DNA from: Xylanibacter ruminicola 23
GTDB lineage: Bacteria > Bacteroidota > Bacteroidia > Bacteroidales > Bacteroidaceae
DNA length: 32,000 bases
Reading direction: 5' to 3'
Assembly: GCF_000025925.1 (NCBI RefSeq)
Contig: NC_014033.1
Location: forward strand, 3,450,001-3,482,000
The notes under the pieces were generated by a model. The model had not been told where the DNA came from. It saw nothing but the letters and a program-made list of their open reading frames with translations, and made no database searches. Positions within the stretch are counted from its first letter, which is position 1. Each line of letters starts with the position of its first letter. Position numbers and translations under genes: made by a program. Positions 8,833 to 29,578 of the stretch are shown one piece after another.

Positions 8833-9992
8833 AATGGTAATATTAGTTCTACAAAATAGGTATCAGTATCATCTTTGATGCTCAGCGTGTAGTTCTTGTC
8901 ATACAACAAGTCCAGTCGCTTCTTAACGTTCACTAAACCTACACCACCTTTCATTTCATTAGGACGCTCAGCCTTGGAGTTCTTACAGGTAAAGTGCAGG
9001 TGGGTTACCTGAGGCAGTGGCTCGATAAGTTCTACCTTAATATCGATAAACGATTCGTGCTGATAACTCACGCCATGCTTAAAGGCATTCTCGATAAACG
9101 AAATCAGCATCAGGGGTGGAACGGTTTTGTCGGGCACCTGGGTAGGCAGGTCGAGATTAATCTTCACCTTGTCGGTATAACGTAGCTTCATCAGTGTGAT
9201 GTAAGTACGTATAAACTCTAGTTCGCGATTCAAAGGCACACCGCTCTTATCGCCTTCGTAAAGCACAAAGCGCATCATCTTCGACAGTTCAAGGATGGTG
9301 TCCTGTGCCTTGGCTGGATCGATATCTACCAGGGCATGGATATTGTTGAGCGTGTTCATAAAGAAGTGTGGGTTTATCTGATATTTCAGATATTCCAGCT
9401 GCTGCTCCAGATTCTGCTTTTCCAGCTCGTGCAGTTTGCGCTGGTCGCTACGGGTGCGGAAGTAGAGCTTGGAACCAAGGTTGGCACCAAACATCAGCAC
9501 GAGTATGACGGTGGCAATGATGTCGTGAAGTCCTCTGCCCGGTCCCTCTTTGCGCATGAATGGCGGATGGGGCTTTCGGTCATGAAATTCTGGTGGCATT
9601 CTGCGGTCATCGCGATCCATTCTGCGGTCGTCGCGTTCTTGGCGTGGGCCGTTAAAGAATTCGCGTTTTTCTCTTTCAGGGAAAGGCCGTGGATGAGTAT
9701 TCATCTGAACGAACACAAATCCTGTAATCACAATGGTGATGGCCGATAAGTATAGGGTGCGCTTATGCCGCTGGATGAGCAAGGGTGCCAGCAGGAAATT
9801 GTGAAACAGAAACAGCAATAAAAATATAATGAACTTGCCCCAGATAAAGAATACTTCACCCCATTGAAAGCTGAGGTTATCATCGCTCATGGTACGTAGA
9901 TACAGACTTAGTAGCGGAGTTGCAAAGAGCAAACTCCACACTACTAAGTATATCAGGTTTTCTTGTCTCGACTGATTTTTCATCCAATACAT
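8829..9992 (-). CDS. Sensor histidine kinase, LytS/YehU-type (His_kinase + GHKL)
   Basis: It has N-terminal TM helices and the NPHFFMNTLNNI H-box typical of LytS-type kinases. It overlaps the response regulator gene by 4 nt. An alternative start is ATG 9983. Confidence 0.85.
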   Translation of the reverse strand: MYWMKNQSRQENLIYLVVWSLLFATPLLSLYLRTMSDDNLSFQWGEVFFIWGKFIIFLLLFLFHNFLLAPLLIQRHKRTLYLSAITIVITGFVFVQMNTHPRPFPEREKREFFNGPRQERDDRRMDRDDRRMPPEFHDRKPHPPFMRKEGPGRGLHDIIATVILVLMFGANLGSKLYFRTRSDQRKLHELEKQNLEQQLEYLKYQINPHFFMNTLNNIHALVDIDPAKAQDTILELSKMMRFVLYEGDKSGVPLNRELEFIRTYITLMKLRYTDKVKINLDLPTQVPDKTVPPLMLISFIENAFKHGVSYQHESFIDIKVELIEPLPQVTHLHFTCKNSKAERPNEMKGGVGLVNVKKRLDLLYDKNYTLSIKDDTDTYFVELILPL

Positions 9993-11907: not shown

Positions 11908-12354
11908 CTACTTGATGGTTATCCACACAGCCTCGCCGCGGTCTTTGGCCTCTACAATCTTATGCTTCAGACGGTGCAGCCAGATGCGGCTGTCAACTAC
12001 TTGCCCCACCAGCTTGTTCTTGCCAACAAGAATGCAGCCTTCGGTGTCGGCGGCCGTATTGCCCGTGTGGATGCGTATGCCCTCAAATTTTGGCACGCCG
12101 AGCAGGATGGGGAGCCACTGCCCGAACTTGGGGCTCCAACTGATTACCACGGCATATCGGCCTTCGGGTATGGCGGAGCGGCCTTTCACTTTGTAGGCTC
12201 CGTGGGCATAGTCGCGCCAGGTGGGTTCCAGCGTGTCGCAGAAGTACTGGTTCTCCGTGCCTGCCAGATACTCGTCGTCCACGTGTCGCTGAATGTAAAT
12301 ATGCCCAATGGTGTAAGTTTTGCGTTTTGCTATACGCTCTAGAATCAATTCCAT
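11908..12354 (-). CDS. DUF5675-like protein (possible YkuD-like cell-wall enzyme fold)
   Basis: The motif pattern CDTLEP...[11 protein letters not shown]...[19 protein letters not shown] matches my recollection of DUF5675. The H-x-G...G-C arrangement resembles L,D-transpeptidase catalytic motifs. Confidence 0.6.
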
Positions 12355-12368
12355 AATTTTTGAATGTG

Positions 12369-12403
12369 CTTAATGTTACATTGTTGCAAAGTTACTTTGT
12401 GAC
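12369..12403. repeat. Left arm of a 35-nt inverted repeat (partner at 29658-29692); carries the DUF5675 promoter
   Basis: The reverse complement gtcacaaagtaactttgcaacaatgtaacattaag matches gtcacattgtaactttgtaacaatgtaacattaag in 32 of 35 positions. It contains the TAACTTTG -7 box (12387-12394, minus strand). Confidence 0.85.
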
Positions 12404-12414
12404 AAAGCGGAAGC

Positions 12415-12455
12415 CAATTTTTACATTTTTACATTTTTAATTTTTACATTTTTCC
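12415..12455. repeat. Tandem 8-nt A/T-tract repeats (atttttac)n; inverted partner at 30739-30766
   Basis: The units are atttttac x2, atttttaa, tttttac and atttttcc. The reverse complement of 12415-12437 matches 30744-30766 in 22 of 23 positions. The array overlaps the last codons of the 768-aa gene. Confidence 0.8.
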
Positions 12456-14743: not shown

Positions 14744-15198
14744 ATTGTTTCCTCCTTTCTGGTTTTAAAGTACGACATAATCTCGTCGGCCTCCTCTTCG
14801 TAGAGAGCCTTGGTGAGCGCCAGTCCGTATTTCTTCGGGAACTTAAAGGTTACGTATACGAACTCCCTGTCTAATCTGCGTTCACCAGCTTTGTGACTAT
14901 TGTTGCTGCGCTTGCGGAATATGGGGCGTGTTATCTTCACGGCACCGTGAGCAGTCTCGAAGAGTGTATCGTGGAGCGGCCCTTTTGTGCCGTCCTTGTA
15001 GCGCTTCACTCTGGTGCGCCCGTCGGCATCCACCTCGATGCCTGCACGATAGCTCACTCGGCTGCCGTCGGTTACCTGCTTCTCATCCTCCCATGGGCAT
15101 GGATACACGTTGATATCTCCGTTGGTCATGAAGTTAATACTTGCATCCATCTGGATAGCGTTATTCAAAATCTGTTCTTGAAATTTCTGTGGATTCAT
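14734..15198 (-). CDS. Hypothetical protein (154 aa)
   Basis: An intact ORF whose end overlaps the primase-type gene start by 10 nt, implying translational coupling. No motif was recognised. Confidence 0.55.
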   Translation of the reverse strand: MNPQKFQEQILNNAIQMDASINFMTNGDINVYPCPWEDEKQVTDGSRVSYRAGIEVDADGRTRVKRYKDGTKGPLHDTLFETAHGAVKITRPIFRKRSNNSHKAGERRLDREFVYVTFKFPKKYGLALTKALYEEEADEIMSYFKTRKEETIWK

Positions 15199-15304
15199 TT
15201 TCTGAAACTTTAGCGAGACCGGGCAAGTGCTGAAATTGGATCCTTTTCACTCGCGAGACTTCCCTCATCCTGCTTTCGTCTCAGATTAAACTTAGTGTTA
15301 CTTT

Positions 15305-15460
15305 TTAGCGATTAAGAAACTGAACGTAGAAAGGCTGCTGTCCTCCTCTGCCCGTTCTTCTACTCAGCATCCTGCACTTGTTCATCAGCGCCATCTGCTG
15401 TCGAGCCTGATTCTTCAATCTGTCGTAGAGTCGCTTACCTTGCATTAAATCTCTTGCCAT
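15305..15460 (-). CDS. Small basic hypothetical protein (51 aa), below the ORF-track size cut-off
   Basis: My hand translation is MARDLMQGKRLYDRLKNQARQQMALMNKCRMLSRRTGRGGQQPFYVQFLNR*. It is the first ORF downstream of the minus-strand -7 box at 15529-15536. Confidence 0.35.
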   Translation of the reverse strand: MARDLMQGKRLYDRLKNQARQQMALMNKCRMLSRRTGRGGQQPFYVQFLNR

Positions 15461-15528
15461 AATTATAATGGTGTACTCACAGGGCTTAACCTCCGCACCG
15501 TTGCATCTGGTTTTCTGTTTTCCGAGTG

Positions 15529-15536
15529 CAAAGGTA
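15529..15536 (-). promoter_or_regulatory. -7 promoter box (TACCTTTG on the minus strand)
   Basis: The plus strand reads caaaggta. It lies immediately downstream of the terminator of the preceding operon. Confidence 0.5.
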
Positions 15537-15550
15537 CGGCAACCTACATG

Positions 15551-15585
15551 AAAAAACCTGCTACGTAGTAGGTACGCGTAGCAGG
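15551..15585 (-). terminator. Intrinsic terminator of the three-gene operon
   Basis: cctgctacg (15557-15565) pairs with cgtagcagg (15577-15585). On the minus strand the hairpin is followed by TTTTTT (15551-15556). Confidence 0.7.
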
Positions 15586-15611
15586 TACGATGTTTTGCAA
15601 AAAGCTGATAA

Positions 15612-16088
15612 TCAGCCTAATACATTTTTCAGTTTGTCTTGGTATTTTAGAGACTTCTTCTGATCTAAAGCTTTGTTGAAATACGAACGCAGTGTTTCTG
15701 GCCTTTCGTTCCACAACATCCCGAATACTTGCCATACATCGTTAATCTTCAACTTATCGCAAACGTTTTTGGCCAGCAATGCCCGTTCAGAACAGCTCAG
15801 CCCGTTAGCCTGCCATTCCTCAGTCAGCATGCCAGCATCCACCAGTTTGTCCATCAGCTCTTCAGCCTCTTCTGTCTTCAGCCTCTCGGGTATCACTCCA
15901 TCCGCTGCATCTGGGTTTGATGAGGCTTCGGCCGCATTGCCATTGTTAATCTGGATACCGATGCCTCCAGGCTCTATGTTTCCAAACTCGTTTTCCACAT
16001 ATTTCACGGCCACTACATCGCCCTTGAAGTTACTTAGGTCGAACCCTTCGGTAGCCGCCTTTATCAGTTCTTTGATGTCTATATCCAT
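15612..16088 (-). CDS. Hypothetical protein (158 aa), third gene of a coupled operon
   Basis: Its start overlaps the upstream stop (TAATG). The N-terminal motif YVENEFGNIEPGGIGIQ resembles the C-terminal motif of the upstream protein. Confidence 0.7.
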   Translation of the reverse strand: MDIDIKELIKAATEGFDLSNFKGDVVAVKYVENEFGNIEPGGIGIQINNGNAAEASSNPDAADGVIPERLKTEEAEELMDKLVDAGMLTEEWQANGLSCSERALLAKNVCDKLKINDVWQVFGMLWNERPETLRSYFNKALDQKKSLKYQDKLKNVLG

Positions 16089-16849
16089 TATTCCTTTTTT
16101 ATTTCCTTAATTACACCAGTGCCGCCAGCCTCTATATTCTGGATCTCAGTATCCACAACCTTTGTGTTTACATATTCCTTTGGCTTTATGATAGTGGAAC
16201 TTTTTATACCAAACTTGTCATACAGGGCTATAACTTCTTTGTCATAAGCATGGTTGTGTTCGATGTTATAACGATTAATAAACAGCAGATTCCCCTTAAT
16301 GGATTCTTTGTCCATTTTGTCGGAACATGCTGCCATGTAGGCAAACAGCTGTTTGATTTCTTCCGATCCGCCGCCATCCAGCTTTATCTCTTGCAGTTCA
16401 TAGTCCAACAGATTTGTTTTCTTGCCTTCCAGCCAACGAGCATCCTCCTTATTAGTCATTTTTTCGATGAGAGGCCACATCAGTTCGTGACCGTCTAAAT
16501 GCTCGAAGATGTGGAGGATAATCTTTCGGATATCTATGTTCGCATATTTTTTGTTCAGGGCTTGCAATTGGACTGTGGCTAATACCAGGATGAGCATGGC
16601 ATCATTATCTCCCTCGGCTTCATCCTCCAAATCCTCAATCTCATATTCTAAGCCTTCGTCGATGTCTGGTAAAGCCAGTACTTCGTGGCAAAAGTTTTGG
16701 GCAGACAAGACAACTTCGGCGGGTGACAATTCTGTATGCCCATCGCGTTGCATTTGCTTTAGTGCATCTTGACTGATGATATATACCACATCAGCGAGCA
16801 GCTGATGACGGGCTGGTTTCTGTTGCTCCTTTTCTAACCTTACTATCAT
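16088..16849 (-). CDS. Hypothetical acidic protein (253 aa), second gene of a coupled operon
   Basis: It overlaps the upstream gene by 4 nt (ATGA). It has an acidic block, EIEDLEDEAEGDND. The C-terminus reads VVDTEIQNIEAGGTGVIKEI. Confidence 0.7.
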   Translation of the reverse strand: MIVRLEKEQQKPARHQLLADVVYIISQDALKQMQRDGHTELSPAEVVLSAQNFCHEVLALPDIDEGLEYEIEDLEDEAEGDNDAMLILVLATVQLQALNKKYANIDIRKIILHIFEHLDGHELMWPLIEKMTNKEDARWLEGKKTNLLDYELQEIKLDGGGSEEIKQLFAYMAACSDKMDKESIKGNLLFINRYNIEHNHAYDKEVIALYDKFGIKSSTIIKPKEYVNTKVVDTEIQNIEAGGTGVIKEIKKE

Positions 16850-17835
16850 GCAGCCTGCTCCTCATCTATAGCTTCCACCTCGTGCTTCATCGAGTTCATC
16901 AGTCCGAGCACCGCTTCTTCGGCTTTCAGACGGTCTTCTGGTTCTACCTTGCTACCGTCCTTCTTTCTTGACTTGAACAAAATTTCCAGATGATTCTCGT
17001 CGAACTCATGGCTCACAATCTTATCCGTATTGTCGCCATCGTTGTCAATGAAGCATCTGAACGTGATTCCATCGGTAGTTATCAGTTCCACAGGCTCATC
17101 TACGGCTTCGGCAAACGTTAGCATATTGCGCATGAAAACACTATTCTTATCTACATAAAGTGCTGCCTTTCTGTCTTCTGGCATTACTGTGTAATGTCCT
17201 TTATACTTAGCTTTCTTCTGCGCATAGCACACATCCAGGATTTGCCCCATGATGGAATCATCGAAATAGTCGCGTTTCTTGGCCTTCAATGCCTCCACTT
17301 TCGCCAGAATATCCTCCTTCTCCATCTCTGGTGTTCCAAAGCGCATCTGCTGGGTATGTGCCTGTTGAAGCTCCCATATCGTGAAAAGGTCGGCGGGGTA
17401 ATAGTCGGGCAGAATCTCAAACCCATAGCAATGATCCAAGAATAGTCGCTTGTCTATGACCTGTGACAGAATCTTTGCCACCTTATGCGTGTCGCTGAAA
17501 GCCTTCCTTCGCTTCTGGATGGCCACGGTACGCATGTTGTTGCGATTGTCGATAATGACAAAACACGATGGCTCGTCCTTGGCCATAGCGGGTTCAAAGT
17601 CGCGCTCCACGGGTATATCAATATTATTTGCAAAGCGCATCACCGTGATACTTGGTGCTATGCTCAAATGATACACCTTGTGTTTATATACCTTGCGGTC
17701 GGAATCTTCTCCTAAACAAAACTCGATGCTCTCATTATTTTCAAAGAGCGCATCCAAATGCTGTTGACGCAGCTGCCAGTCGTAGCAGCCTGCAGCGTAC
17801 TTGTATTTACAGTAATATTGTGCGAATTTAGACAT
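16846..17835 (-). CDS. Hypothetical protein (329 aa), first gene of a coupled operon
   Basis: A long intact ORF. The start is set at ATG 17835 (MSKFAQYY), since the track start at 17859 is a TTG. No family was recognised. Confidence 0.7.
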   Translation of the reverse strand: MSKFAQYYCKYKYAAGCYDWQLRQQHLDALFENNESIEFCLGEDSDRKVYKHKVYHLSIAPSITVMRFANNIDIPVERDFEPAMAKDEPSCFVIIDNRNNMRTVAIQKRRKAFSDTHKVAKILSQVIDKRLFLDHCYGFEILPDYYPADLFTIWELQQAHTQQMRFGTPEMEKEDILAKVEALKAKKRDYFDDSIMGQILDVCYAQKKAKYKGHYTVMPEDRKAALYVDKNSVFMRNMLTFAEAVDEPVELITTDGITFRCFIDNDGDNTDKIVSHEFDENHLEILFKSRKKDGSKVEPEDRLKAEEAVLGLMNSMKHEVEAIDEEQAA

Positions 17836-18099
17836 TGGTTTATTAATTTGTGCTGTCAAATCTCACACGAAGGCAGATTACCCCCGTGCGTGTGAATATA
17901 TAAATATTGTTAGTTACAGCATTGCTAATATCGCTCTCAGATTTTGTGTCAGTATTTAATGTTCTTATTAAACTCTGTCAGGTTGATGCTTGGCCGATAA
18001 TGCAATACAGTCGATTTAGCGTGGTTGTATATGTCCACGTTTGAGTGATATCCTAAATTGTAATTCTTCATAATTTTTTAAACAGTTTTTAATTGGCTA

Positions 18100-18639: not shown

Positions 18640-18647
18640 TATCTTTG
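18640..18647 (+). promoter_or_regulatory. -7 promoter box (TATCTTTG) for the WYL-exonuclease operon
   Basis: TAnnTTTG match 22 nt upstream of ATG 18669. Confidence 0.55.
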
Positions 18648-18668
18648 CAGCATCAAATATTAAAATGT

Positions 18669-19580
18669 ATGGCAAAGAACCTATTAAACAAGTACGTCTG
18701 GTTGGTGGAAACCATTTACAAAGCCAAAAGGATCTCTTTTGAGGAGATCAACCATCGTTGGCTCGATAATGATATAAGCGAGGACAAACCGTTGTCAATT
18801 AGGACTTTCCACAAATGGCGTATCGCTATCGAAGAGATGTTTGGTCTCATCATTGAGAATGAACAGGGTGGTCAGTATCGCTACTATATCCAGAATGCTG
18901 AAGAACTGAGAAGTGGCTCGATGCGCAGCTGGCTTTTCAACACGCTGACTGTCAGTAATCTGATGCTGGATAGCGTCAGCATCAAGGATAAGGTGTTGTT
19001 CGAAGAAATCCCTGATGGCGAGCAGTATCTCCCTGATATTCTTGAAGCCCTGAAGAAGAATCTGGTACTTGGAATGACTTATCAGAGTTTTACCCGTGAC
19101 GAGGCCAATACTTTCGAAATTGAGCCTTATTGTCTGAGGGCTTTTAAACAACGCTGGTACTTGGTGGCGCGTAGTCCCTATTATAATAAGATCATGATTT
19201 ACGCTTTGGATAGGGTTCAATGGCTGGGATTAACCGAAAAGACTTTCAAATACCCCAAGGATTTTATTCCTGTAGAATTCTTTGATGATTGTTTTGGCAT
19301 CATTGCTGACCAAAACGTCAGCATAGAGACTGTCAAGTTCAAGGTCTCCACAGGACAGGCAAATTATCTTCGCAGTTTGAGATTGCATCAATCACAGCAT
19401 GAGATTGAACGGACAGATGAATATAGCATCTTTACTGTCAGGCTTCGCCCTACCTTCGATTTCCGTCAGGAGATTCTCTCGCAAGGTTGTGACATCGAAG
19501 TATTGGAGCCCAAATGGTTCCGTGATGAGGTGGCAGAGATTTCAAAACACATGTGGAACAAATACAAGGATGACAAATGA
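18669..19580 (+). CDS. WYL-domain transcriptional regulator (wHTH-WYL-WCX, BrxR/CapW-like architecture)
   Basis: The central segment FKQRWYLVARS is the WYL signature. An N-terminal wHTH-like region is present. The ~300-aa length is typical. The start is set at ATG 18669. Confidence 0.8.
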   Translation: MAKNLLNKYVWLVETIYKAKRISFEEINHRWLDNDISEDKPLSIRTFHKWRIAIEEMFGLIIENEQGGQYRYYIQNAEELRSGSMRSWLFNTLTVSNLMLDSVSIKDKVLFEEIPDGEQYLPDILEALKKNLVLGMTYQSFTRDEANTFEIEPYCLRAFKQRWYLVARSPYYNKIMIYALDRVQWLGLTEKTFKYPKDFIPVEFFDDCFGIIADQNVSIETVKFKVSTGQANYLRSLRLHQSQHEIERTDEYSIFTVRLRPTFDFRQEILSQGCDIEVLEPKWFRDEVAEISKHMWNKYKDDK

Positions 19581-20068
19581 GAGACTTTGCAGCAATAGAT
19601 TTTGAGACAGCAAACAACGAGCGTACCAGTGTTTGTTCCGTTGGTGTGGTCATCGTCAGAAATGGCGAGATAGTAGACACCTTCTACTCTCTGATTCAGC
19701 CAGAGCCCAATTATTATAATTATTGGTGCAGCCAAGTGCATGGGCTTTCTCGTGAGGACACTGAGGACGCTCCTGTATTCCCAGAGGTTTGGAAGCAGAT
19801 AGAACCACTTATTGATGGCTTGCCCTTAGTGGCCCATAACAAAAGCTTTGATGAGAGTTGCCTGAAAGCCGTATTCCGTTGCTATCAGATGGATTATCCG
19901 GATTATCCGTTCTACTGCACATGTGTGGCTTCTCGCAAGGCTTTTCCACAATTACCCAACCATCAATTGCATACGGTTTCAGAATACTGTGGTTATCACC
20001 TCGAAAACCACCATCATGCCCTCGCAGATGCTGAGGCTTGTGCCTGGATAGCAAGGGAGATTCTGTAA
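19577..20068 (+). CDS. DEDDh 3'-5' exonuclease (DnaQ/epsilon-like)
   Basis: The Exo I motif is AIDFETAN, Exo II is VAHNKSFDESCL and Exo III is HHALADAEA. Its start overlaps the WYL gene stop (ATGA). Confidence 0.85.
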   Translation: MRDFAAIDFETANNERTSVCSVGVVIVRNGEIVDTFYSLIQPEPNYYNYWCSQVHGLSREDTEDAPVFPEVWKQIEPLIDGLPLVAHNKSFDESCLKAVFRCYQMDYPDYPFYCTCVASRKAFPQLPNHQLHTVSEYCGYHLENHHHALADAEACAWIAREIL

Positions 20069-20168: not shown

Positions 20169-20193
20169 CAGAATGGTTTTATCAGATAGCAAA

Positions 20194-21165
20194 ATGGACG
20201 AGAACAAGATTGTAATATATCAGACGGAAGACGGACAGACACAGATTGATGTCCGCTTGGAGAATGAGACGGTATGGTTGACGCAGGCTCAGATGGCGGA
20301 ACTATTTCAGAAAGATCAGTCTGTTATAGCTCGTCATATTAACAATGCTTTGAAGGAGGGTGAACTTGAAGAAAATAGTAATATGCATTTTTTGCATAAT
20401 ACTCAATACAAGTATCGTCCAACAAAGATTTACGACCTTGATACCATTATCTGTGTTGGCTACCGTGTTCATAGTAAACGTGGTGCTGCATTTCGTATCT
20501 GGGCACGCAAGATTATCAAGGATTATCTTGTGAAAGGCTATGCTGTAAACCAGCGCATTCATAGTGAGCAGATTGGAGAGTTGCGTCAGTTGGTAGGTAT
20601 GCTTGGGCGTACCCTGCAAAACCAACCTGTTATCTCTACTGATGAAACTGCAGCTTTGTTCGAAGTGGTTACAGATTATACTTATGCACTTGATACACTC
20701 GATAACTACGACTACGAGCGACTCGCCATCGATAAGACCACAAAAGAAGAGCCTTTCCACGCTACTTACGAAAATGCGATGGAAGCCATCAGTGGCTTGC
20801 GAGAGAAATTTGGTGGCTCAACTCTCTTTGGTAACGAGAAAGATGATTCTTTCAAGAGTAGTATTGGCCAGATCTATCAGACTTTTGGAGGTGAGGAACT
20901 CTATCCAAGTGTTGAGGAGAAAGCAGCCATGTTGCTATATCTGGTAACGAAGAACCACTCCTTTAGTGATGGCAACAAGCGTATTGCTGCCACGTTATTC
21001 CTCTGGTTTCTGAACAATAACCACATCCTGTATCGCAAAGACGGTTCAAAACGTCTGGCTGATAACACCCTCGTTGCTCTTACGTTGATGATTGCAGAGA
21101 GCAAGACGGAGGAGAAGGACGTGATGGTAAAAGTCGTGGTTAATTTAATTAATCAGAAGAACTAA
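20194..21165 (+). CDS. RhuM-family N-terminal domain fused to a Fic/Doc domain
   Basis: The N-terminal pattern IVIYQTEDGQTQIDVRLENETVWLTQAQMAELF...VGYRV.S.RG..FR.WA is RhuM-like. The C-terminal HSFSDGNKRIAATLFL matches the Fic/Doc motif HxFx(D/E)GN(G/K)R. Confidence 0.8.
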   Translation: MDENKIVIYQTEDGQTQIDVRLENETVWLTQAQMAELFQKDQSVIARHINNALKEGELEENSNMHFLHNTQYKYRPTKIYDLDTIICVGYRVHSKRGAAFRIWARKIIKDYLVKGYAVNQRIHSEQIGELRQLVGMLGRTLQNQPVISTDETAALFEVVTDYTYALDTLDNYDYERLAIDKTTKEEPFHATYENAMEAISGLREKFGGSTLFGNEKDDSFKSSIGQIYQTFGGEELYPSVEEKAAMLLYLVTKNHSFSDGNKRIAATLFLWFLNNNHILYRKDGSKRLADNTLVALTLMIAESKTEEKDVMVKVVVNLINQKN

Positions 21166-21178
21166 CCAATTTCGTCAT

Positions 21179-21241
21179 TTATCAACTTTTCCACGCTACA
21201 TCATTATACTCATATAAGAATAAGAGAAATAAGAAAAGATA
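21179..21241. repeat. Intergenic repeat class 1, copy 2
   Basis: See the copy at 20069-20131. Confidence 0.75.
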
Positions 21242-21261
21242 ATAATAATGATGTTTTTATA

Positions 21262-21300
21262 AGGTGTGCCTCAATACGGCGCACCTTTCTTGTATCTTTG
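21262..21300 (+). promoter_or_regulatory. Hairpin-plus-promoter cassette junction
   Basis: The hairpin pairs aggtgtgcc (21262-21270) with ggcgcacct (21278-21286). It is followed by ttcttg and the -7 box TATCTTTG (21293-21300). Confidence 0.6.
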
Positions 21301-21327
21301 CATCGTGAACTATAAAGATGTAACGAT

Positions 21328-21723
21328 ATGACAGTATCAGAATTATTTAAGAAGTATGACTTTGAAAGCCTACTACCGCATTTAAATCACCTCTTTATGG
21401 TGAATAGTGGGCGGCATTTCTCTGAAGCGAGTATTGAGGTGTTCAGAGGTCTTTATAAAAAATGGACCGAGTGCGAAACAAAACCTACGAATCGCCATAT
21501 CCGACTTGTATCTCGTTGGGAGCATACAAGTCCTTCCATTGATATGAATTGTCATGTTAAAGAGAAGAATGTTTTTTGCTACGCAGTAGCAGACCAGAAA
21601 GATATGATTGAAGTACTGGGCATGAAAGTGAGAGTAGATAAAGACGTTGAAATCAGCGAGGTGGAGTTGGCAGCTGGTCTCTTTTGGGAAATGACCTATT
21701 ATGGTCCTAAAGAAAATGGATAG
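21328..21723 (+). CDS. Hypothetical protein (131 aa), paralogous to the N-terminal domain of the 25486..26532 product
   Basis: ELFKKYDFESLLPHLNHL matches ELLNSVTFEEVAPCLLHL. VEISEVELAAGLFWEMTYYG matches VEATNAELAACCIWHTSFYG. It may be a DUF6557-type family, which is an unverified recollection. Confidence 0.7.
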   Translation: MTVSELFKKYDFESLLPHLNHLFMVNSGRHFSEASIEVFRGLYKKWTECETKPTNRHIRLVSRWEHTSPSIDMNCHVKEKNVFCYAVADQKDMIEVLGMKVRVDKDVEISEVELAAGLFWEMTYYGPKENG

Positions 21724-21769
21724 TTATACGAAATTATGTTAATACGCTCTATTGTTCAAAATAAAGTAG

Positions 21770-21777
21770 TATCTTTG
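21770..21777 (+). promoter_or_regulatory. -7 promoter box (TATCTTTG)
   Basis: It lies inside the long track ORF 21736..22632, which argues for the ATG 21802 start. Confidence 0.5.
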
Positions 21778-21801
21778 TTGCACCTAAAAGAAATAAGGAA
21801 T

Positions 21802-22632
21802 ATGATTAACGGATTTAAGGTTATAACCCTCTGCGGTAGCACTCGCTTCAAGGAAGAATTCTTGGAAGCACAAAAGCGTCTGACACTTGAAGGCAACATC
21901 GTTATTTCTGTGGGGCTGTTTGGCCATTCTGGTGACGATGTGGTATGGACAGAGGGAGTGAAGGATATGTTAGATCGCCAGCATCTGGCAAAGATTGACT
22001 TGGCTGATGAAATCTTTGTCATCAATGTGGGTGGTTATATTGGCGATAGCACCAGACGCGAAATCGCATATGCAGAATTCAAAGGCAAGACAATTAAATA
22101 TATGGAAAATAGTAAGAAAACAAACATCTATGAGAATTACGCTGCATTGCGCGAACTTCATGATGCAGGAAGAATCTCTGATGATGATTTTGAACAGGCG
22201 GGACGAGACTTTGACGAAAAGCGTAAAACTGCTATAGCTGAGTATAACGCATGCCAAGGTCCCTGGCCCTATCAGTGGAAAAACATAGATACTGTTGTCT
22301 GTGGAGTTTTGCAGCAGATGGACGTTGTCTCTATTGACTATTCAGACCTCAAAGATCTCTATGATGCTGATAGCGTATATGAAGTTCGCATTAAAGGAAA
22401 AGGAGCCAATGATGAAGAACAACTTCAAAACATCATTGACACAATCAGAAGTGAATACATGGCCAAACTACGTTCCCCAAGGAAGGCTGTTGTAACGTTA
22501 TGTGCTTCGTCTAATCCTTCTGGCTTACTTGAAAAACTTGCCGACTGCATGGATGGCCTGAATGTAGTTTGGCAGACAAGAACTCTCCATACAGATACAA
22601 AAGAAATAGAATTGTCAATATTATTTGTATAA
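21802..22632 (+). CDS. Nucleoside 2-deoxyribosyltransferase-like (NDT/Rcl-fold) N-terminal domain fused to an unknown ~170-aa C-terminal domain
   Basis: The N-terminal pattern is KVITLCGSTRF...LTLEGNIVIS...HLAKIDLADEIFVINVGGYIGDSTRREIAYAEFKGKTI. It resembles a phage/actinobacterial NDT-like family (GS.RF ... H..KI..AD...V.N..GY.G.ST..EI.YA...GK). This is from memory. Confidence 0.45.
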   Translation: MINGFKVITLCGSTRFKEEFLEAQKRLTLEGNIVISVGLFGHSGDDVVWTEGVKDMLDRQHLAKIDLADEIFVINVGGYIGDSTRREIAYAEFKGKTIKYMENSKKTNIYENYAALRELHDAGRISDDDFEQAGRDFDEKRKTAIAEYNACQGPWPYQWKNIDTVVCGVLQQMDVVSIDYSDLKDLYDADSVYEVRIKGKGANDEEQLQNIIDTIRSEYMAKLRSPRKAVVTLCASSNPSGLLEKLADCMDGLNVVWQTRTLHTDTKEIELSILFV

Positions 22633-22636
22633 GTAT

Positions 22637-22996
22637 ATGGAATTGTTAGAACAAAAGATAAATGAACTAATAGGACGGTTAGAGGCATTACATAAGAATC
22701 CCAATCCTGATTTTGATAGATTAAGGGAAAAAGTTGATGCTATAGAGTATGACTATTCCAAGTTAGAAGAAGAATATTATGAGTTGAGGGAAGGAGAAGA
22801 GGCATTACTTCTTCCTATAGAGTATATCGAAGACCGTCTTCAGTATGCAAATGCATTAATCTTTAGGATCTGCGATGAAAACGGATTGGAATACGCTGAT
22901 TATAATGAATATGATGGCGGAATAATTAGGGTGCCTTTGGAAGATAAGGAAGAGAATAGTTCTTTGCAATATCTGCCGATGGATAATATAGAATAA
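22637..22996 (+). CDS. Small acidic coiled-coil-like hypothetical protein (119 aa)
   Basis: ATG 22637 lies 4 nt after the upstream stop. The protein is Glu/Asp-rich (EEEYYELREGEEALL). No family was recognised. Confidence 0.6.
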   Translation: MELLEQKINELIGRLEALHKNPNPDFDRLREKVDAIEYDYSKLEEEYYELREGEEALLLPIEYIEDRLQYANALIFRICDENGLEYADYNEYDGGIIRVPLEDKEENSSLQYLPMDNIE

Positions 22997-23035
22997 GCGT
23001 GATTGTATATTTTTTATGGATATAATTGGAAAAAT

Positions 23036-24214
23036 ATGAGTGGAGAAGAATACAAAAAATGGGTTAACGAAGCATATTTATATATTAGTAAAAAGGAGGT
23101 ATATGATAGAGTAAACCAACTTAAGTATGTCAATGTAGGTTCTACTCAGTACATTCCCAAAATTGACGGAAATGTAGAATTCGTATTTCTTGGTCATGAT
23201 GCCCATGAAGGGAGAGGCGATAACGACAAATTGGATATTACCTTTGCGAAAGAAAGATTTTATAAAGGTAATGGTGATCCAAGAATTTGGCGTAAATGCC
23301 CTGAATGGAAAATATGGAATAATATGGAACGCGCTTTATGGAGAGTTGGTTTTGCTGAGATAATGGATGATAAATATATCTCAGATGAAATACTGAAGAA
23401 TACGATAGTAACCAATGCTTTGTTTTTTACTTATGCGAATGACAGCGAAAAAGCGCTCGCAAAAAAACTCAATACTCTCTTGGGACCAGATATTGTTAAT
23501 GAGTGTATGAAACGTACAGGGGAGCTTATTTTTGAGGTAATAAAACCCAAAATGGTAATATGCTCTTCTTGTTCTATGGTTTTTGAGCCTCTTATAAAGA
23601 ACTATAATGCAGATATTAGGTATGAGGTTATCCGTTTGGAAGGAACAAGTAGAAGAGTTATGAGATGTAATTATAATGGTGTTACCGTGCTAGGAATACC
23701 ACATACAAGTTATCCTGTTCCATTACCTGTGGCAGCATTTGTTCGAGACTCATATTTGGGGAAAGATAATGGATATACAATGTCAAATGTATCTTATGCG
23801 TCTTCTATTAATCCCATGCATCTTCGTGCTAAGGCACTAAAAAAAATGATTAGTAAAAATTGGGCGGTACAAAGTATTTACTATAATATACTTTACCACG
23901 AATATTATTCTACAAAAGTAGATGGAAAATATGTAAATAGCAAAGACAATATTGTTATTGATTTGACTCCTGAAGAAGACAAGAATCAATATGTGGTACT
24001 TGTATTCACACGTCAGAATGACATTGAAAAGACAAGAGATTTAATAAAAGGCATTTGGCCATATGAAAAATTCAATCCATGGGTATGCGACAAATCGCGC
24101 CATGTTCATGAGGTGATTTCTTTCGAAGAAAGCAATGAGGAGATTAAAAACAAGATGGAGAAAGTGCTACAAGAAGTGAAGGCATATCGTGACAAAGAGT
24201 ATCCTCTGAAATAA
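23036..24214 (+). CDS. Hypothetical protein (392 aa); N-terminal ~260 aa possibly uracil-DNA-glycosylase-superfamily fold
   Basis: The motifs VEFVFLGHDAHEG, IVTNALFF, IKPKMVICSSCSMVFEPL and VTVLGIPHTSYP occur in the order and approximate spacing of UDG-family motifs (GEAPG / TN.VK / P..I..LG / HPS). The motif A residues are atypical. Confidence 0.3.
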   Translation: MSGEEYKKWVNEAYLYISKKEVYDRVNQLKYVNVGSTQYIPKIDGNVEFVFLGHDAHEGRGDNDKLDITFAKERFYKGNGDPRIWRKCPEWKIWNNMERALWRVGFAEIMDDKYISDEILKNTIVTNALFFTYANDSEKALAKKLNTLLGPDIVNECMKRTGELIFEVIKPKMVICSSCSMVFEPLIKNYNADIRYEVIRLEGTSRRVMRCNYNGVTVLGIPHTSYPVPLPVAAFVRDSYLGKDNGYTMSNVSYASSINPMHLRAKALKKMISKNWAVQSIYYNILYHEYYSTKVDGKYVNSKDNIVIDLTPEEDKNQYVVLVFTRQNDIEKTRDLIKGIWPYEKFNPWVCDKSRHVHEVISFEESNEEIKNKMEKVLQEVKAYRDKEYPLK

Positions 24215-24238
24215 AAGCTTATATTATTCTTTCTTTAT

Positions 24239-24278
24239 AACCTCTGCCCTAAAACGGCATTGGGTTCTATTATCTTTG
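24239..24278 (+). promoter_or_regulatory. Intergenic repeat class 2, copy 1 (degenerate hairpin plus TATCTTTG promoter)
   Basis: aacctctgccctaaaacggcattgggttctattatctttg is the counterpart of 25035-25074. The -7 box is at 24271-24278. Confidence 0.65.
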
Positions 24279-24308
24279 CATAGTGATTAATATATAAAGA
24301 ATAAAGTT

Positions 24309-24962
24309 ATGGAGAATGAAAAAAAACGATTTTCAAGTGAGATAAAAGTGATAGACGAATTATTTCCAAAGGGAAAAGTCTCAATTCTGGCATCTGGTCC
24401 CGGTGTGGGCAAAACAATATTTGCTTGCAAAATAGCCAAGTGGTTAACTTATCACAGGGAACGCGTTCTTTATGTCAATATGGCGTCTGACCATATAAAT
24501 ATAGACACTTCGGATGACGATACTATTCCATGGAAATGTAGCTTATTAGACATGCCTCTTCTTTCAATAGAGGATATATCGTTTGTATTGTCAAGAAGAT
24601 ATACTTTTGACACCATTATTCTCGACTACATAGAATTGATGTATTTTGTCAAAGGTATAGAATGCTTGAAAAGGAAAGAAGAACTAAATGCTATTTGGCA
24701 TTTTCTTGACCATATTGCAAAAGAAAAGAACATTCGTGTAATAGGATTGTCCCAGTTGGAACGAGGCCGTATAGATGGAACAGAAGAGTCTTGTTTCGAT
24801 AAAGTGCTGAAATACTTAAACAGGGATTTTGTTAGGGAAAGACTTGTCGTTTTACATCGCCCTAGTTATTATGAGCCACAAGATAATAATACTGAGCAAG
24901 TACAATTAATAACGTTTAAGAATGGAATAAAAAAGGAAAACATATTAGAAAATACAAAATAG
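24309..24962 (+). CDS. DnaB-helicase C-terminal (RecA-fold) domain-only ATPase
   Basis: The Walker A motif is ILASGPGVGKTIFACKIA and the Walker B-like motif is TIILDYIELM. VIGLSQLERG matches the DnaB (A)LSQL(S/N)R motif, and VVLHRPSYYEP matches DnaB ..YRD.YY. There is no DnaB N-terminal domain, and the SDLRESG-type motif is not evident. Confidence 0.65.
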   Translation: MENEKKRFSSEIKVIDELFPKGKVSILASGPGVGKTIFACKIAKWLTYHRERVLYVNMASDHINIDTSDDDTIPWKCSLLDMPLLSIEDISFVLSRRYTFDTIILDYIELMYFVKGIECLKRKEELNAIWHFLDHIAKEKNIRVIGLSQLERGRIDGTEESCFDKVLKYLNRDFVRERLVVLHRPSYYEPQDNNTEQVQLITFKNGIKKENILENTK

Positions 24963-25082: not shown

Positions 25083-25493
25083 ATGAAAAATAGTATGAAC
25101 TCGAACAGAAATTCCAGAAGAAAAGATTGTCTTATAATGGTGTTGACAATCGTTATTATTACCCTCGTCGCTATCGTTTTATGTGGTTCATTAATGAGGG
25201 TACTTGAAGGACGCTTGCTATTTCAACTATTTGTTGCAGTATTGTTAAGTGTTTCCGCTACCGGTATAATAACGACTCTGTTATTATACTCACAGCGTAT
25301 ACAACATGAGGAATGGGTAAGAGCACAAATGGTGTTTTTAGAGGAACAAATCAGAGACCAACGGCTTTTTGAGTCAAAGCAAAAGCAGAAAGAAAAAGAA
25401 AGGCTTTGGGGATTTTTAAGAAAACTATGTGATATGGTTAAAGACCAGAAGATCTTACCTGAATACATCTACAAGGAATTATATAATGAATAA
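25083..25493 (+). CDS. Small membrane protein (two predicted TM helices plus a charged coiled C-terminal tail)
   Basis: The hydrophobic segments are LIMVLTIVIITLVAIVLCGSL and LFQLFVAVLLSVSATGIITTLLLY. The tail is Lys/Glu-rich (ESKQKQKEKERLW). Confidence 0.65.
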   Translation: MKNSMNSNRNSRRKDCLIMVLTIVIITLVAIVLCGSLMRVLEGRLLFQLFVAVLLSVSATGIITTLLLYSQRIQHEEWVRAQMVFLEEQIRDQRLFESKQKQKEKERLWGFLRKLCDMVKDQKILPEYIYKELYNE

Positions 25494-26532
25494 AGATATA
25501 AGAACAATTATGACTTTCAAAGAATTATTAAACAGCGTTACATTTGAGGAGGTGGCTCCCTGTCTTTTGCATTTGCATCCAGATGCAGAGGGTAATTTGA
25601 AATGGTATAAGATTCATTTCGATATGTTGCGTCAGATGACACCCAAGCATCATGATGATGCAAATAGTGATGTGTGCAATATCACAATGGAAAAGTGGAG
25701 GGAAGGTAAGATGATTCTCGATGCTCATCCAATGGAGGGTGATTTGTGGGAGCATTCACTAACAAAAGAAATCATTCTCGCTCCTGATGTTGAAGCTACA
25801 AATGCTGAATTAGCAGCTTGTTGCATCTGGCATACCTCATTCTATGGCTTTGTGGATAAGCAGGCACAGGAATGCTTAAGGTTTGACGAGGATGATTTAG
25901 ATATCAAAGACAGGTGGGACGACTCTATCTATAATAAGGTAAAAGCAATGCGGTATTTCTCCATCATTCGCAGAAATGGTGGCCATGTTCCTACTTTGAA
26001 AGAATTGCCGCAATCAAAGAAAAAGGAATTGATTAAGCAATCTAAAGAATATTTCTGGTGTATCAGTGAATCGATGAACAATACTAAAAAGAAGAGGATG
26101 TTCCGAAGAGAATTTATGGGCTACTACTACGAGCGTATGGCAGCTATCAGCAGGTTTATCGTTCAGGCAATTCCGGCATTGGGTGACGAAAGAAATAATA
26201 TGAGTATTGAACAACTCTGTGGTTTGTTTAAGTCAGACCTATTTAGCCCAGAAACAATCACATCGTATGCTGATGAGCATACGAATGGGGCAAAGTATTT
26301 CTGCGATTTACTGGAGATGGAAGATATCAATACCAGATTAGATAGAATGGTAGTGGTTCTAACAACAGGAGAATATCATAAAGAACTGACGGAAGACGAA
26401 CAACGCTTATGCAAGCTTCTTATTGGCAATTGTAAATCAAGCAACATCCTCTTGGCTACAGACCCCTCATTAGGCAGACAAGTCCGTATCGACTATGCTA
26501 CGTTTAATTTAAAATATCCATTAGTAAAATAA
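25486..26532 (+). CDS. Hypothetical protein (348 aa); the N-terminal ~120 aa are paralogous to the 21328..21723 product
   Basis: ATG 25486 overlaps the upstream stop by 8 nt. The shared motifs are listed under 21328..21723. The C-terminal ~230 aa are unrecognised. Confidence 0.65.
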   Translation: MNKDIRTIMTFKELLNSVTFEEVAPCLLHLHPDAEGNLKWYKIHFDMLRQMTPKHHDDANSDVCNITMEKWREGKMILDAHPMEGDLWEHSLTKEIILAPDVEATNAELAACCIWHTSFYGFVDKQAQECLRFDEDDLDIKDRWDDSIYNKVKAMRYFSIIRRNGGHVPTLKELPQSKKKELIKQSKEYFWCISESMNNTKKKRMFRREFMGYYYERMAAISRFIVQAIPALGDERNNMSIEQLCGLFKSDLFSPETITSYADEHTNGAKYFCDLLEMEDINTRLDRMVVVLTTGEYHKELTEDEQRLCKLLIGNCKSSNILLATDPSLGRQVRIDYATFNLKYPLVK

Positions 26533-28369: not shown

Positions 28370-29578
28370 ATGGCAACAGACAAACAGAAACTACAGATGA
28401 GTGAAGATTTTGACTCTTTGGTCAGACGTATACAGAACACGAGCGATGTCCTGCAACAAGACGCTCGATTGGTCATCAATCGGAATGTCACCACACGTGC
28501 GTGGCTGACAGGTTTTTATATTGTGGAATACGAACAGCACGGAAAGGATCGTGCAAAGTATGGCGATAAACTGCTAAAACGTTTGGCTGAACAATTAGAT
28601 GACAAAAGCTTCAGCCTTGCCAGTCTGAAGAATTATAGGCAATTCTATCTTTATTATCCTGAGATAGCACGACCTATAGCAGACTATTTACAGCATAAGA
28701 CACAAAAAAGCCAATCACTGATTAGCCTTTTTCAACAGATAGGAAATCAGAGACTTATAAAAAGCCAATCACTGATTAGCCTTTCTGATGGATTACAATC
28801 AGATATTGTTTCTGAGGATGGATTTGCTATTAAAGCGGCAAATGGGAATGTGATGGCTGCTCCTGATATGGTATTTAATAGATTATCTTTCACACATATA
28901 GCGCAGTTGATACACTTGAATGACCCTCAGAAACGAGCATTTTATGCCATCGAAGCCATGCGTGGACCATGGAGTGTGAGAGAACTTCAGCGGCAGATAG
29001 ACAGCAATTACTACGAACGTAGCGGGTGGAGTAAGAAACCAGAACTGTTGGCAAGCAAAGTCAATGACAAAATAGAGAGACCTACTTTCAGAGGAGAACT
29101 GAAATCGCATTATGTATTTGAGTTTTTAGGGCTATACGCAAAAGATACTATCGAGGAAGATGTATTGGAGCAAAGCCTCATTGACCATCTGGAAGAATTC
29201 TTGTTAGAGCTGGGCATGGGATTCTGTTTGGAGGCACGACAGAAGAAACTGCTTATCGACGATCGTTACTTCAAGGCAGACTTGGTGTTTTACCACAGGA
29301 TATTGAAATGTCACTGTATCGTGGAATTGAAAGGGCATCGTTTGGATTATGCGGATGTTGCTCAGTTGAATATGTATATAGAGTATTATCGCAAGAACTA
29401 TATGCAACCTGAAGACAATCCCCCTGTAGGTCTGCTCCTCTGCACAGAGTACGGACAAGAAATGGTTGAATACTTATCACCATTCGTGGATCCTCAGTTG
29501 TTTGTAGCACAATACGAACTTCAACTGCCCAGCAAGGAGAAGATGAAGGAATTCCTGTTGAGAGAAAACAGAGGATAA
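28370..29578 (+). CDS. DUF1016/YhcG-family PDDEXK nuclease-domain protein
   Basis: The N-terminal region has the YhcG-type pattern RAWLTGFYIVEYEQHG. LSFTHIAQLIHLNDPQKRAFYAIEAMRGPWSVRELQRQI is present. The C-terminal D...E.K nuclease core reads DLVFYHRILKCHCIVELK. Confidence 0.8.
   Translation: MATDKQKLQMSEDFDSLVRRIQNTSDVLQQDARLVINRNVTTRAWLTGFYIVEYEQHGKDRAKYGDKLLKRLAEQLDDKSFSLASLKNYRQFYLYYPEIARPIADYLQHKTQKSQSLISLFQQIGNQRLIKSQSLISLSDGLQSDIVSEDGFAIKAANGNVMAAPDMVFNRLSFTHIAQLIHLNDPQKRAFYAIEAMRGPWSVRELQRQIDSNYYERSGWSKKPELLASKVNDKIERPTFRGELKSHYVFEFLGLYAKDTIEEDVLEQSLIDHLEEFLLELGMGFCLEARQKKLLIDDRYFKADLVFYHRILKCHCIVELKGHRLDYADVAQLNMYIEYYRKNYMQPEDNPPVGLLLCTEYGQEMVEYLSPFVDPQLFVAQYELQLPSKEKMKEFLLRENRG
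28705..28784 (+). repeat. In-frame 26-nt perfect direct repeat inside the DUF1016 gene (28705-28730 and 28759-28784)
   Basis: aaaaagccaatcactgattagccttt occurs twice, 54 nt apart. This gives KSQSLISL twice in the protein. Confidence 0.85.

Follow-up and report, generated by a model that had tools for sequence, protein, structure and literature searches.

Divergent proteins belonging to the uracil-DNA glycosylase (UDG) superfamily have recently been recognised in antiviral immunity. Brig1 is such an enzyme, excises glucosylated hydroxymethylcytosine (glucosyl-hmC) and has 4ZBY as the best structural match reported by its authors (PMC11078745); the UDG-like Brig2 acts against phages with modified thymidines (bioRxiv 10.1101/2025.10.29.685425), and Brig3 shares an operon with BapA, a hydrolase that is its partner (bioRxiv 10.64898/2026.02.25.707755). 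Effectors resembling nucleoside 2-deoxyribosyltransferases (NDT) deplete NAD+ in retron Ec86/Eco1 systems (review PMC13276650), and in humans DNPH1 is a hydrolase of hydroxymethyl-deoxyuridine monophosphate (hmdUMP; PMC10603095) and SMUG1 a glycosylase for 5-hydroxymethyl-uracil (hmU; PMC13223739). Here we analysed a 32,000-nt stretch of Xylanibacter (Prevotella) ruminicola 23 (NC_014033.1, positions 3,450,001-3,482,000; the window, to which all positions below refer), in which an NDT-like protein (g1), a small acidic protein (g2) and a divergent UDG-like protein (g3) are encoded in a row. The pairing of g1 with UDG-like domains is real, abundant and well supported by gene fusions, and together with a function that we infer it makes the locus a credible candidate variant of glycosylase-based defence. 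The original prediction, drawn from the letters of the window, had spoken of an undescribed system. This holds for the pairing, which is new, but not for the principle, which is already known from Brig1, Brig2, Brig3-BapA and the NDT-like retron effectors. A combination of the NDT fold with the UDG fold was not described in the literature searched, where only one general review came up.

With the Brig systems the locus shares a divergent UDG-fold protein that is recognisable by profile or structure only and is encoded in an acquired A+T-rich island beside defence candidates. The best solved relative of the g3 profile (4zbx/4zby/4zbz) includes 4ZBY, the structure closest to Brig1. When the g3 profile was aligned to Brig1 by hhalign, however, P was 0.0033 over 62 columns round motif A only, a likeness at superfamily level at most, and membership of g3 in the Brig1 family was rejected. 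Brig3-BapA is the nearest architectural precedent because a partner hydrolase is present in the same operon, but the partner of g3 is NDT/DNPH1/LOG-like and often fused to the glycosylase, whereas BapA is set apart by its description as an ASCH-fold glucosyl hydrolase. A swappable C-terminal domain on g3 and an attached WYL regulator are further differences from the Brig systems. The human DNPH1-SMUG1 pair, in which an NDT-fold nucleotide N-hydrolase and a UDG-superfamily glycosylase deal with one non-canonical base at the level of the pool and of DNA, is comparable to what we propose for g1 and g3; the DNPH1 motifs recur in the same order in the N-terminal domain of g1, and the best structural matches of g3 in the PDB are SMUG1. 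In contrast to our locus, the human genes are unlinked and unfused, and they serve sanitation and repair rather than the conflict proposed here, and the sequence likeness of g1 to DNPH1 is non-significant (E 0.08).

Coupling of g1 with UDG-like domains

The genes and predicted domains concerned are, with lengths in amino acids (aa):

18645-19580, + strand: WYL-WCX transcription regulator (Pfam WYL 3.7e-14, WCX 1.6e-11; PADLOC WYL 7e-30)
21802-22632, + strand: g1, open reading frame (ORF) of 276 aa
21802-22116, + strand: g1 N-terminal domain, residues 1-105, NDT/DNPH1/LOG-like, Rossmann-type, putative nucleotide N-glycosidase (AlphaFold2 model, BFVD matches, motifs)
22117-22632, + strand: g1 C-terminal part, residues 106-276, predicted helical hairpin and alpha/beta domain (AlphaFold2 secondary structure)
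22637-22996, + strand: g2, ORF of 119 aa
23036-24214, + strand: g3, ORF of 392 aa
23036-23821, + strand: g3 N-terminal domain, residues 1-262, divergent UDG-superfamily glycosylase-like (homologues, profile, AlphaFold2 model, motifs)
23822-24214, + strand: g3 C-terminal domain, residues 263-392, conserved swappable module (architectures among homologues)

A scan anchored on g1, with one genome per GTDB species, returned 18 loci, which came nearly throughout from metagenome-assembled genomes of rumen Prevotellaceae, plus one Agathobacter contig. One locus breaks off within g1, which leaves 17 informative ones; 16 of these have a UDG-like domain either fused to g1 or immediately downstream. Single-ORF fusions of 406-542 aa were found seven times (L023, L025, L027, L028, L030, L031, L033), each with g1 at the N-terminus and a glycosylase of clade iii (motif A GYNPHE) at the C-terminus, L033 being without the second half of g1. 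Two four-domain fusions, P0170 (665 aa) and P0180 (669 aa), occur on several contigs each and consist of both g1 domains, a clade ii glycosylase and the tail module of g3; P0231 and P0236 are similar. As the seven loci have clade iii fused to g1 whereas P0170 and P0180 contain clade ii, fusion has occurred with at least two glycosylase clades. Directly after the fused gene of L028, a second and different UDG-like ORF (8265-8918; GEAPG ... HPS, family-4-type motifs) places two glycosylase-like genes in tandem.

Compared with the window copies, identity across the loci was 72-98% for the N-terminal domain of g1, 45-80% for its C-terminal part and 23-75% for the UDG-like domain, which falls into three clades; the flanking backbone genes of the island were mostly 55-98% identical. 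The coupling of g1 with a UDG-like domain extends across species, and the adjacency has outlasted the full replacement of the glycosylase clade. Co-occurrence, which the original prediction had asked of all three genes, was seen for the two enzyme genes far beyond this genome, and repeatedly within one ORF. A WYL gene stands directly upstream of g1, or of the N-domain alone, with the UDG-like domain downstream or fused, in L023, L033 and L034; the last of these, the contig of the Firmicute Agathobacter, shows the minimal layout of WYL, N-domain and UDG. The second half of g1 is absent from L033 and L034 and is therefore dispensable for the pairing.

Raw hit counts (110 for g3 against 3969 for g1) would make g3 an occasional cargo behind a common g1, a reading that was rejected because of the UDG-like partner in 16 of the 17 loci anchored on g1. 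These counts are misleading, since that for g1 takes in proteins consisting of the N-domain only and the partners are too divergent for a word-seeded search.

As predicted, g2 is small and acidic (119 aa, isoelectric point 4.20, 32 Asp/Glu) and largely helical. It was found only between g1 and a glycosylase of clade i (GHDAHEG), namely in the window and in L013-L015, L117 and L118. Given its absence from L035, which has the same clade i, and from all clade ii and iii loci, g2 is best regarded as an optional accessory of the clade i glycosylase outside the core. Comparison of the loci thus shows the two-enzyme pair together with the WYL gene, rather than the three-gene operon, to be the unit that is conserved.

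All three are considered real genes since identical copies occur on several contigs and the reading frames are kept in relatives at 65-97% identity. The exact g3 protein was called on nine contigs, and in six of the six shown g2 and g1 lie directly upstream, g1 being cut at one contig end. The proteins correspond to WP_013063433.1, WP_041386390.1 and WP_143040102.1 (the last being PRU_2816 of strain 23), all of which are named 'hypothetical protein' in RefSeq. Searches of Pfam, NCBIfam, PHROGs and PADLOC with g1, g2 and g3 gave no significant match, and single-sequence searches of the PDB returned nothing useful. Lengths and N-termini of the homologues agree with the starts at 21802 and 23036; a longer g1 beginning at ATG 21736 is disfavoured because the promoter box would then fall inside the ORF. 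The promoter boxes bordering the unit are:

21770-21777, + strand: Bacteroidetes-type -7 promoter box TATCTTTG for g1-g2-g3 (motif TAnnTTTG), 24 nt 5' of the g1 ATG
24271-24278, + strand: TATCTTTG promoter box of the DnaB_C-like ATPase gene (24309), the first such box after g3; boundary of the transcription unit

The shared box and the short gaps noted earlier (4 nt between g1 and g2, 39 nt between g2 and g3) were found as described, and neither gap holds a TATCTTTG box. The window is enriched in the motif TAnnTTTG: 41 matches were counted where 24 +/- 4.6 are expected, and none of the shuffles gave as many. Together with the box at 21770, the lack of TATCTTTG in the gaps and the next box at 24271, this makes a single promoter serving g1-g2-g3 plausible, with the next unit starting from 24271. 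The exact octamer occurs six times on the + strand (18640, 20161, 21293, 21770, 24271 and 25067), each time a short distance 5' of the point where the following + strand ORF has its first listed start codon, and these boxes appear to divide the island into short units with their own promoters. Of the junction that had been described after g3 as a hairpin plus promoter, the promoter was retained and the hairpin was not: its folding energy of -8.7 kcal/mol was equalled or surpassed by 29 of 200 shuffles (z = -0.9), and a terminator scan of 21200-24500 found nothing after g3. The sole terminator-like hairpin in the scanned range lies at 21261-21287, just 3' of a RhuM-Fic gene.

Folds and conserved residues of g1 and g3

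The NDT-like character of the g1 N-domain had been read from the motifs LCGSTRF, HLAKIDLADEIFVIN and GGYIGDSTRREIAYA; these are all present, as is GHDAHEG in g3. In the AlphaFold2 model (confidence score pLDDT 80.8) the N-domain forms four beta-alpha units with four strands. Its best match in BFVD is a phage protein labelled 'N-deoxyribosyltransferase' (E 2.1e-8, template modelling (TM) score 0.70, root-mean-square deviation (rmsd) 3.4 A over 108 columns, 42% identity), followed by more than ten further matches labelled NDT, DUF4406, DUF7768 or SLOG, all these labels being automatic annotations. The model and its matches (E 2e-8) speak against an unrelated fold; an NDT-like fold is therefore supported, whereas membership in a named family is not. 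Neither g1 nor most of its relatives matched any Pfam model. DUF4406 matches were obtained for five of 63 N-domain relatives at E 0.0026-0.01, and P0398 reached 20.7 bits against the DUF4406 cutoff of 22 and gave a separate weak Nuc_deoxyrib_tr match.

Like the NDT families (PF05014, PF14359 DUF4406) and LOG/SLOG, the N-domain is a small Rossmann-like beta-alpha domain, apparently with the corresponding Gly-Ser motif behind strand 1 and the Glu, which is conserved, in the helix that follows a GGY-type loop; its structural matches in phages carry these labels. It differs from them in lying below the Pfam thresholds, in its own invariant signature, in its length of only about 100 residues and in its unusually high conservation. 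The family signature reads TLCGSTRFK, GLFGHSGD and GGYIGxSTxxEIxYA; C11-G12-S13-T14 are invariant, and 90% or more of the N-domain sequences retain Glu87. In the alignment to DNPH1, which is itself non-significant, CGSTRF stands opposite CGSIRGG, an acidic helix precedes beta-3, and Glu87 is opposite the Glu of YELG.

A HMMER scan of 1.84 billion representatives at 50% identity returned 7631 clusters related to g1, of which 5056 were at E <= 1e-10. Nearly all of these match residues 1-103 only, and the best 150 of the 7631 are 59-87% identical. Among 146 near-complete representatives, the N-domain has a C-terminal extension in 63, an N-terminal extension in 50 and extensions on both sides in one, and stands alone in 32. 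Its fusion partners, at either end, include NADAR, YjeF_N, NUDIX, GNAT, a helicase IV-type helicase and a restriction-endonuclease domain as well as DUF4138, DUF1643, DUF1905, DUF4298 and DUF1653. These searches make the N-domain a very large family of high conservation, promiscuous in its fusions and lacking a Pfam model. With 7631 clusters, and with occurrences in viral contigs, islands and many fusions, it is among the larger uncharacterised enzyme-like families encountered in this analysis and deserves a name.

In viral contigs, the N-domain gave 283 matches, mostly free proteins of 102-160 aa, and 80 viral loci compared with each other showed no conserved neighbour, the largest neighbour cluster covering 4 of the 80. 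Among isolated phages it is rare (10 records). A 735-kb uncultured phage (LR756501.1 / LR756503.1, 668496-668804) carries a copy at 57% identity, and more distant copies, of which one bears the annotation 'deoxyribosyltransferase', are present in giant Caulobacter phages and in the Anabaena/Nostoc phages A-1(L) and A1. Relatives of g3 were found neither in IMG/VR nor in the PLSDB plasmids.

The separate second domain that had been noted in g1 corresponds to residues 106-276 and was reached by five of the best 150 representatives, at 62-79% identity. With the whole chain of g1, Foldseek proposed FtsZ/tubulin both among PDB entries and among viral models (E about 1e-6, probability 1.0), but the TM scores of 0.22-0.27 and the rmsd of 14-18 A led us to reject this reading. 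The GTP-binding signature GGGTG[ST]G is absent from g1, and the N-domain has four strands, whereas FtsZ has six there. The element order of g1 is FtsZ-like, with a Rossmann-like domain, a long helix and then helix-strand-helix-strand-helix-strand-strand, and in the model the likeness appears to be one of topology only. The sister island L013 encodes a tubulin/FtsZ-family protein (12145-13404; Pfam Tubulin and FtsZ_C) adjoining RhuM-Fic.

The proposed assignment of g3 to the UDG superfamily was borne out through its relatives. A precomputed PF03167 annotation is carried by 13 of 110 g3 homologues, namely the distant ones (28-44% identity). When the members of the family alignment A1 were scanned singly, 20 of 33 matched PF03167 (best E 1e-8), and the fused relative P0236 reached 27.1 bits against the cutoff of 24.3. 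The A1 profile searched against PDB sequences found the solved uracil-DNA glycosylase 4zbx/4zby/4zbz, a family-4 UDG, at E 1.5e-5. These matches place the N-terminal domain of g3 in the UDG superfamily by transitive sequence homology rather than directly, and the structural support is weaker: the AlphaFold2 model (pLDDT 86.9) has SMUG1 as its top five Foldseek matches in the PDB, with E 0.02-0.06, probability up to 0.98, TM 0.43-0.48 and rmsd 7-10 A.

Motif A (GHDAHEG, residues 53-59) follows the strand 49-53, the strand 123-127 ends in the invariant Asn127, and motif B (PHTSYP, with the invariant His223) follows the strand 216-221; a further strand is at 173-177. This placement after the strands makes the motif order consistent with a UDG fold. 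The unusual motif A becomes GINPG in the relatives of clade ii and GYNPHE in those of clade iii, so that its third position is Asp in clade i and Asn in the other two, and clade i has Ala where the Pro would stand. Among UDG families, Asp at this position of motif A characterises UNG, and Asn characterises MUG/SMUG1. Motif B reads PHTSYP, HTAYY or HPSGR according to the clade, with H223 kept in all three. Although the clades share only 23-30% identity, all keep G53, D/N55, G78, N79, W91, N127, P171, K172 and H223, and such conservation amid turnover argues for a constant putative catalytic core with shifting specificity or surfaces.

The C-terminal domain of about 130 aa noted earlier is a separate, strongly conserved module (residues 263-392) that resembled nothing else in searches by structure or sequence. 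Of the 110 hits, 11 have it joined to a clade i glycosylase, 22 to a clade ii glycosylase, and others to a membrane protein of the same islands, namely 26 to the part labelled TMmid and five to TMN; a clade i glycosylase with an alternative tail accounted for 26 further hits. The module ends in YRDKEYPL and is common to g3 and a two-helix membrane protein of sister islands (L011, 8001-9053; L013, 7737-8858). A remnant of this protein is present in the window:

25083-25493, + strand: truncated remnant of the membrane protein, 136 aa, resembling L011_350 and L013_373 in their N-terminal part (labelled TMN)

The presence of only this N-terminal remnant suggests recombination between g3 and the gene of the membrane protein, which could be a trace of domain shuffling.

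Proposed function and alternative explanations

We propose, with a probability of about 0.45, that g1 and g3 form a WYL-controlled conflict module, most probably directed against phages or mobile elements, which would act on the N-glycosidic bonds of non-canonical bases, cleaving them in DNA through the UDG-like part and in nucleotides through the NDT-like part. The UDG-like domain of g3 would flip out and excise a non-canonical base, probably a modified pyrimidine, from invading DNA, and the resulting abasic sites would block replication as with Brig1, Brig2 and Brig3. The N-domain of g1 would cleave a nucleotide N-glycosidic bond, in the simplest case, by analogy, by hydrolysing the matching modified (deoxy)nucleoside monophosphate ((d)NMP). 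Precursor pool and DNA would then both be attacked, following the logic of human DNPH1 and SMUG1 for 5-hydroxymethyl-uracil. We suggest that the two activities are coupled physically, which would explain why they so often form a single polypeptide. In an arms race, swapping and fast diversification would affect the glycosylase and the C-terminal module, the nucleotide-hydrolase-like domain remaining near constant. The module would reside in the variable slot of a mobile island under a WYL-type regulator, with g2 as an optional accessory of the Asp-type (GHDAHEG) clade. A conflict setting is supported by the low G+C content, the PADLOC candidates of the island, the N-domain protein next to McrB/McrC in L016 and the Nmad genes in the slot of L011, L025 and L027. 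The analysis thus shows genes, folds, conserved active-site positions, adjacency, fusions, WYL link and island setting, from which activities, substrates, regulation and a role in defence are inferred.

A more specific version of this proposal is doubtful as a whole. It assumes an undescribed two-level anti-phage system against a hypermodified pyrimidine, in which the near-invariant N-domain hydrolyses the modified dNMP of the phage and the hypervariable glycosylase excises the same base, as a bacterial counterpart of DNPH1 and SMUG1, with g2 acting as a Ugi-like DNA-mimic brake in the Asp-type clade. The occurrence of the N-domain in viral contigs and its NAD/ADP-ribose-related fusions leave several substrates possible.

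Several observations weigh against the proposed conflict module. The adjacency within Prevotellaceae partly reflects shared descent of the island, and PADLOC has no model that matched g1, g2 or g3. Only one of five AlphaFold2 models of g1 was confident (80.8, the other four 63-66). In comparisons of the N-domain, human DNPH1 stayed below significance by hhalign (E 0.08), and the N-domain profiles (A2, A4) found nothing significant in the PDB, the best match being a LOG-family protein with colinear motifs at E 0.087. For g3, the sequence alone had no Pfam match at E <= 0.1 and no structural match in the PDB reached E <= 0.001 (TM 0.47). The N-domain loci in viral contigs contain no UDG-like ORF of the g3 family within 4 kb; given that the N-domain is commonly stand-alone there, its basic job needs no glycosylase and may serve phages, not hosts. 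Finally, the island carries replication-type genes, with a DnaB_C-like ATPase (24309-24962) and a DUF3987 primase-like protein in the window and a full DnaB in sister loci including L007, so that the pair could serve the element itself.

One alternative is abortive infection, in which the UDG-like domain would sense foreign or modified DNA and switch on the NDT-like domain as a toxin depleting NAD+ or nucleotides. The NAD+-depleting NDT-like effectors of retron Ec86/Eco1 (PMC13276650) are a precedent, and a variable recognition domain fused to a constant enzyme domain is the usual layout of sensor and effector. The N-domain is fused elsewhere to the NAD/ADP-ribose-related domains NADAR, YjeF_N and NUDIX, and the acidic g2 could be an antitoxin-like brake. 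By description, the type II-A retrons (Ec86/Eco1) also use an NDT-like domain as the enzymatic arm of defence, but g1-g3 has a glycosylase-like partner instead, and the Pfam scan of window proteins turned up neither a reverse transcriptase nor any other piece of a retron, no Rfam scan for msr/msd having been made. We consider this alternative unlikely, as the motif A Asp/Asn, Asn127 and His223 are kept in all three clades, which argues for catalysis beyond mere binding, and a free N-domain of about 100 aa that is widespread in viral contigs would be odd for a host-killing toxin.

It is a little less probable that the island modifies its own DNA or exchanges bases with g1 and g3, aided by Nmad2/Nmad3 (domains named 'nucleotide modification associated') in sister islands, to escape restriction in new hosts. 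Classical NDT enzymes (PF05014) are base-exchanging transferases, which counts for such a role, and the unidirectional genes behind repeated promoters resemble the leading or early regions of mobile elements. Nmad2/Nmad3 adjoin g1 in L011 (6205-7634, in place of the glycosylase) and L012, and Nmad2 and/or Nmad3 follow the fused g1-UDG gene in L025 (10635-11432) and L027 (10626-11423). Nmad2 as a hidden UDG was rejected (hhalign E 0.27). However, the window yielded nothing that would supply a replacement base, for example a TGT/DpdA-like enzyme or a pathway of base synthesis, and the N-domain motifs align with the hydrolase DNPH1 and with LOG, no transferase family model being matched. The turnover of the glycosylase (23-75% identity, three clades, swapped C-terminal domains) would suit the chasing of a target better than self-modification.

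Housekeeping of the element, with a DNPH1-like pool sanitiser and a uracil/hmU glycosylase protecting the replicating DNA of the island in the manner of herpes- and poxvirus UDG and dUTPase, is improbable. Conservation would be expected of a repair enzyme whose substrate is fixed, but no gene of the island changes faster than the glycosylase, which comes in three clades with interchangeable C-terminal domains and sometimes gives way to Nmad genes. Control by WYL and the neighbouring RhuM-Fic, YhcG and McrBC also fit conflict better than maintenance. The replication-type proteins mentioned above, among them the full DnaB of L007, would agree with housekeeping, as would the UNG-like Asp of motif A with the conserved Asn and His in clade i and the role of DNPH1 and SMUG1 as a human sanitation pair (PMC10603095, PMC13223739). 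That the three genes merely travel together as unrelated cargo, for which inherited synteny in the mostly Prevotellaceae loci and the optional g2 could be cited, is effectively excluded by the independent fusions with two glycosylase clades (iii in seven loci, ii in P0170 and P0180), by the shortened fusion in L033, by the N-domain/UDG pair behind WYL in the Firmicute L034 and by an adjacency that survives clade replacement.

If g1 and g3 form a defence module as proposed, they would add a coupled nucleotide N-glycosidase arm to the recently recognised glycosylase-based immunity, and would show this class to be abundant among the Prevotellaceae of rumen and gut, a group in which hardly any defence systems have been tested. 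The interchangeable glycosylase clades, three in all, and the swappable C-terminal domains would then be a natural series for enzymes that recognise modified bases, and potential reagents for the mapping of DNA modifications. If the pair serves self-modification or sanitation instead, the repeated fusion would still mark a functional coupling of NDT fold and UDG fold that was not described in the literature searched.

Island context and neighbouring genes

The acquired island and the upstream WYL regulator that had been described were both recovered. G+C content is 0.33-0.44 from about 15 to 30 kb compared with 0.47-0.56 in the flanks, as fits a horizontally acquired island around g1-g3, and the genes from 18.6 to 29.6 kb all have the same orientation. 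In the Pfam scan of the window proteins, none of the matches indicated an integrase, a phage structural gene or a reverse transcriptase; a search for tRNA genes was also negative. With no phage structural genes in the scan and no g3 relative in IMG/VR, the genes do not lie in a prophage, a placement that would have spoken against the original prediction.

The WYL-WCX protein is the probable controller of the module, and the real start of its gene may be a later ATG. A WYL-WCX regulator upstream on the same strand, directly adjacent in compact versions, is shared with the WYL-regulated defence operons of the BrxR-BREX and CapW-CBASS type. The window differs from them by the three transcription units between WYL and g1, and the WYL gene is also further upstream in most other loci. 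It overlaps by 4 nt with the gene of a DEDDh (RNase T-type) exonuclease (together 18645-20068), which matches PADLOC PDC-S48 and is paired with WYL in most sister islands.

The backbone of the sister islands consists of WYL, the DEDDh exonuclease, sometimes RhuM-Fic, a DUF6557 protein of 131 aa, g1, a variable slot, a long DUF6557 protein and proteins of 100, 104 and 216 aa. The two DUF6557 paralogues (in the window 131 aa at 21328-21723 and 367 aa at 25429-26532) bracket the variable slot, and this bracket is kept in nearly all sister islands. Besides the glycosylase, the slot contains alternative tails, a BNR-like protein of 113 aa, a membrane protein with the same C-terminal module as g3, Nmad2/Nmad3, a YgjP-like peptidase and DnaB. 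Candidate defence genes in the window are a RhuM-Fic fusion (20173-21165; PADLOC PDC-S23, 9e-137) and a YhcG/DUF1016 PD-(D/E)xK nuclease (28370-29578; PADLOC PDC-S02, 8e-110). The left island edge (12437-17859, - strand) encodes the DUF3987 primase/helicase-like protein of 768 aa (12437-14743) and four unannotated proteins.

A distant N-domain protein, P0389 (381 aa, with a C-terminal domain of 270 aa), stands in L016 (4613-11729) in a row of EVE-McrB, McrC, P0389 and a UvrD helicase, where its gene starts on the last base of McrC. The C-terminal domain of P0344/P0389 was compared with UDG by hhalign (E 0.08 around the motif-B region), a possible likeness that carries no weight here. The same island also has RhuM, a 131-aa ORF and a Schlafen-WYL protein.

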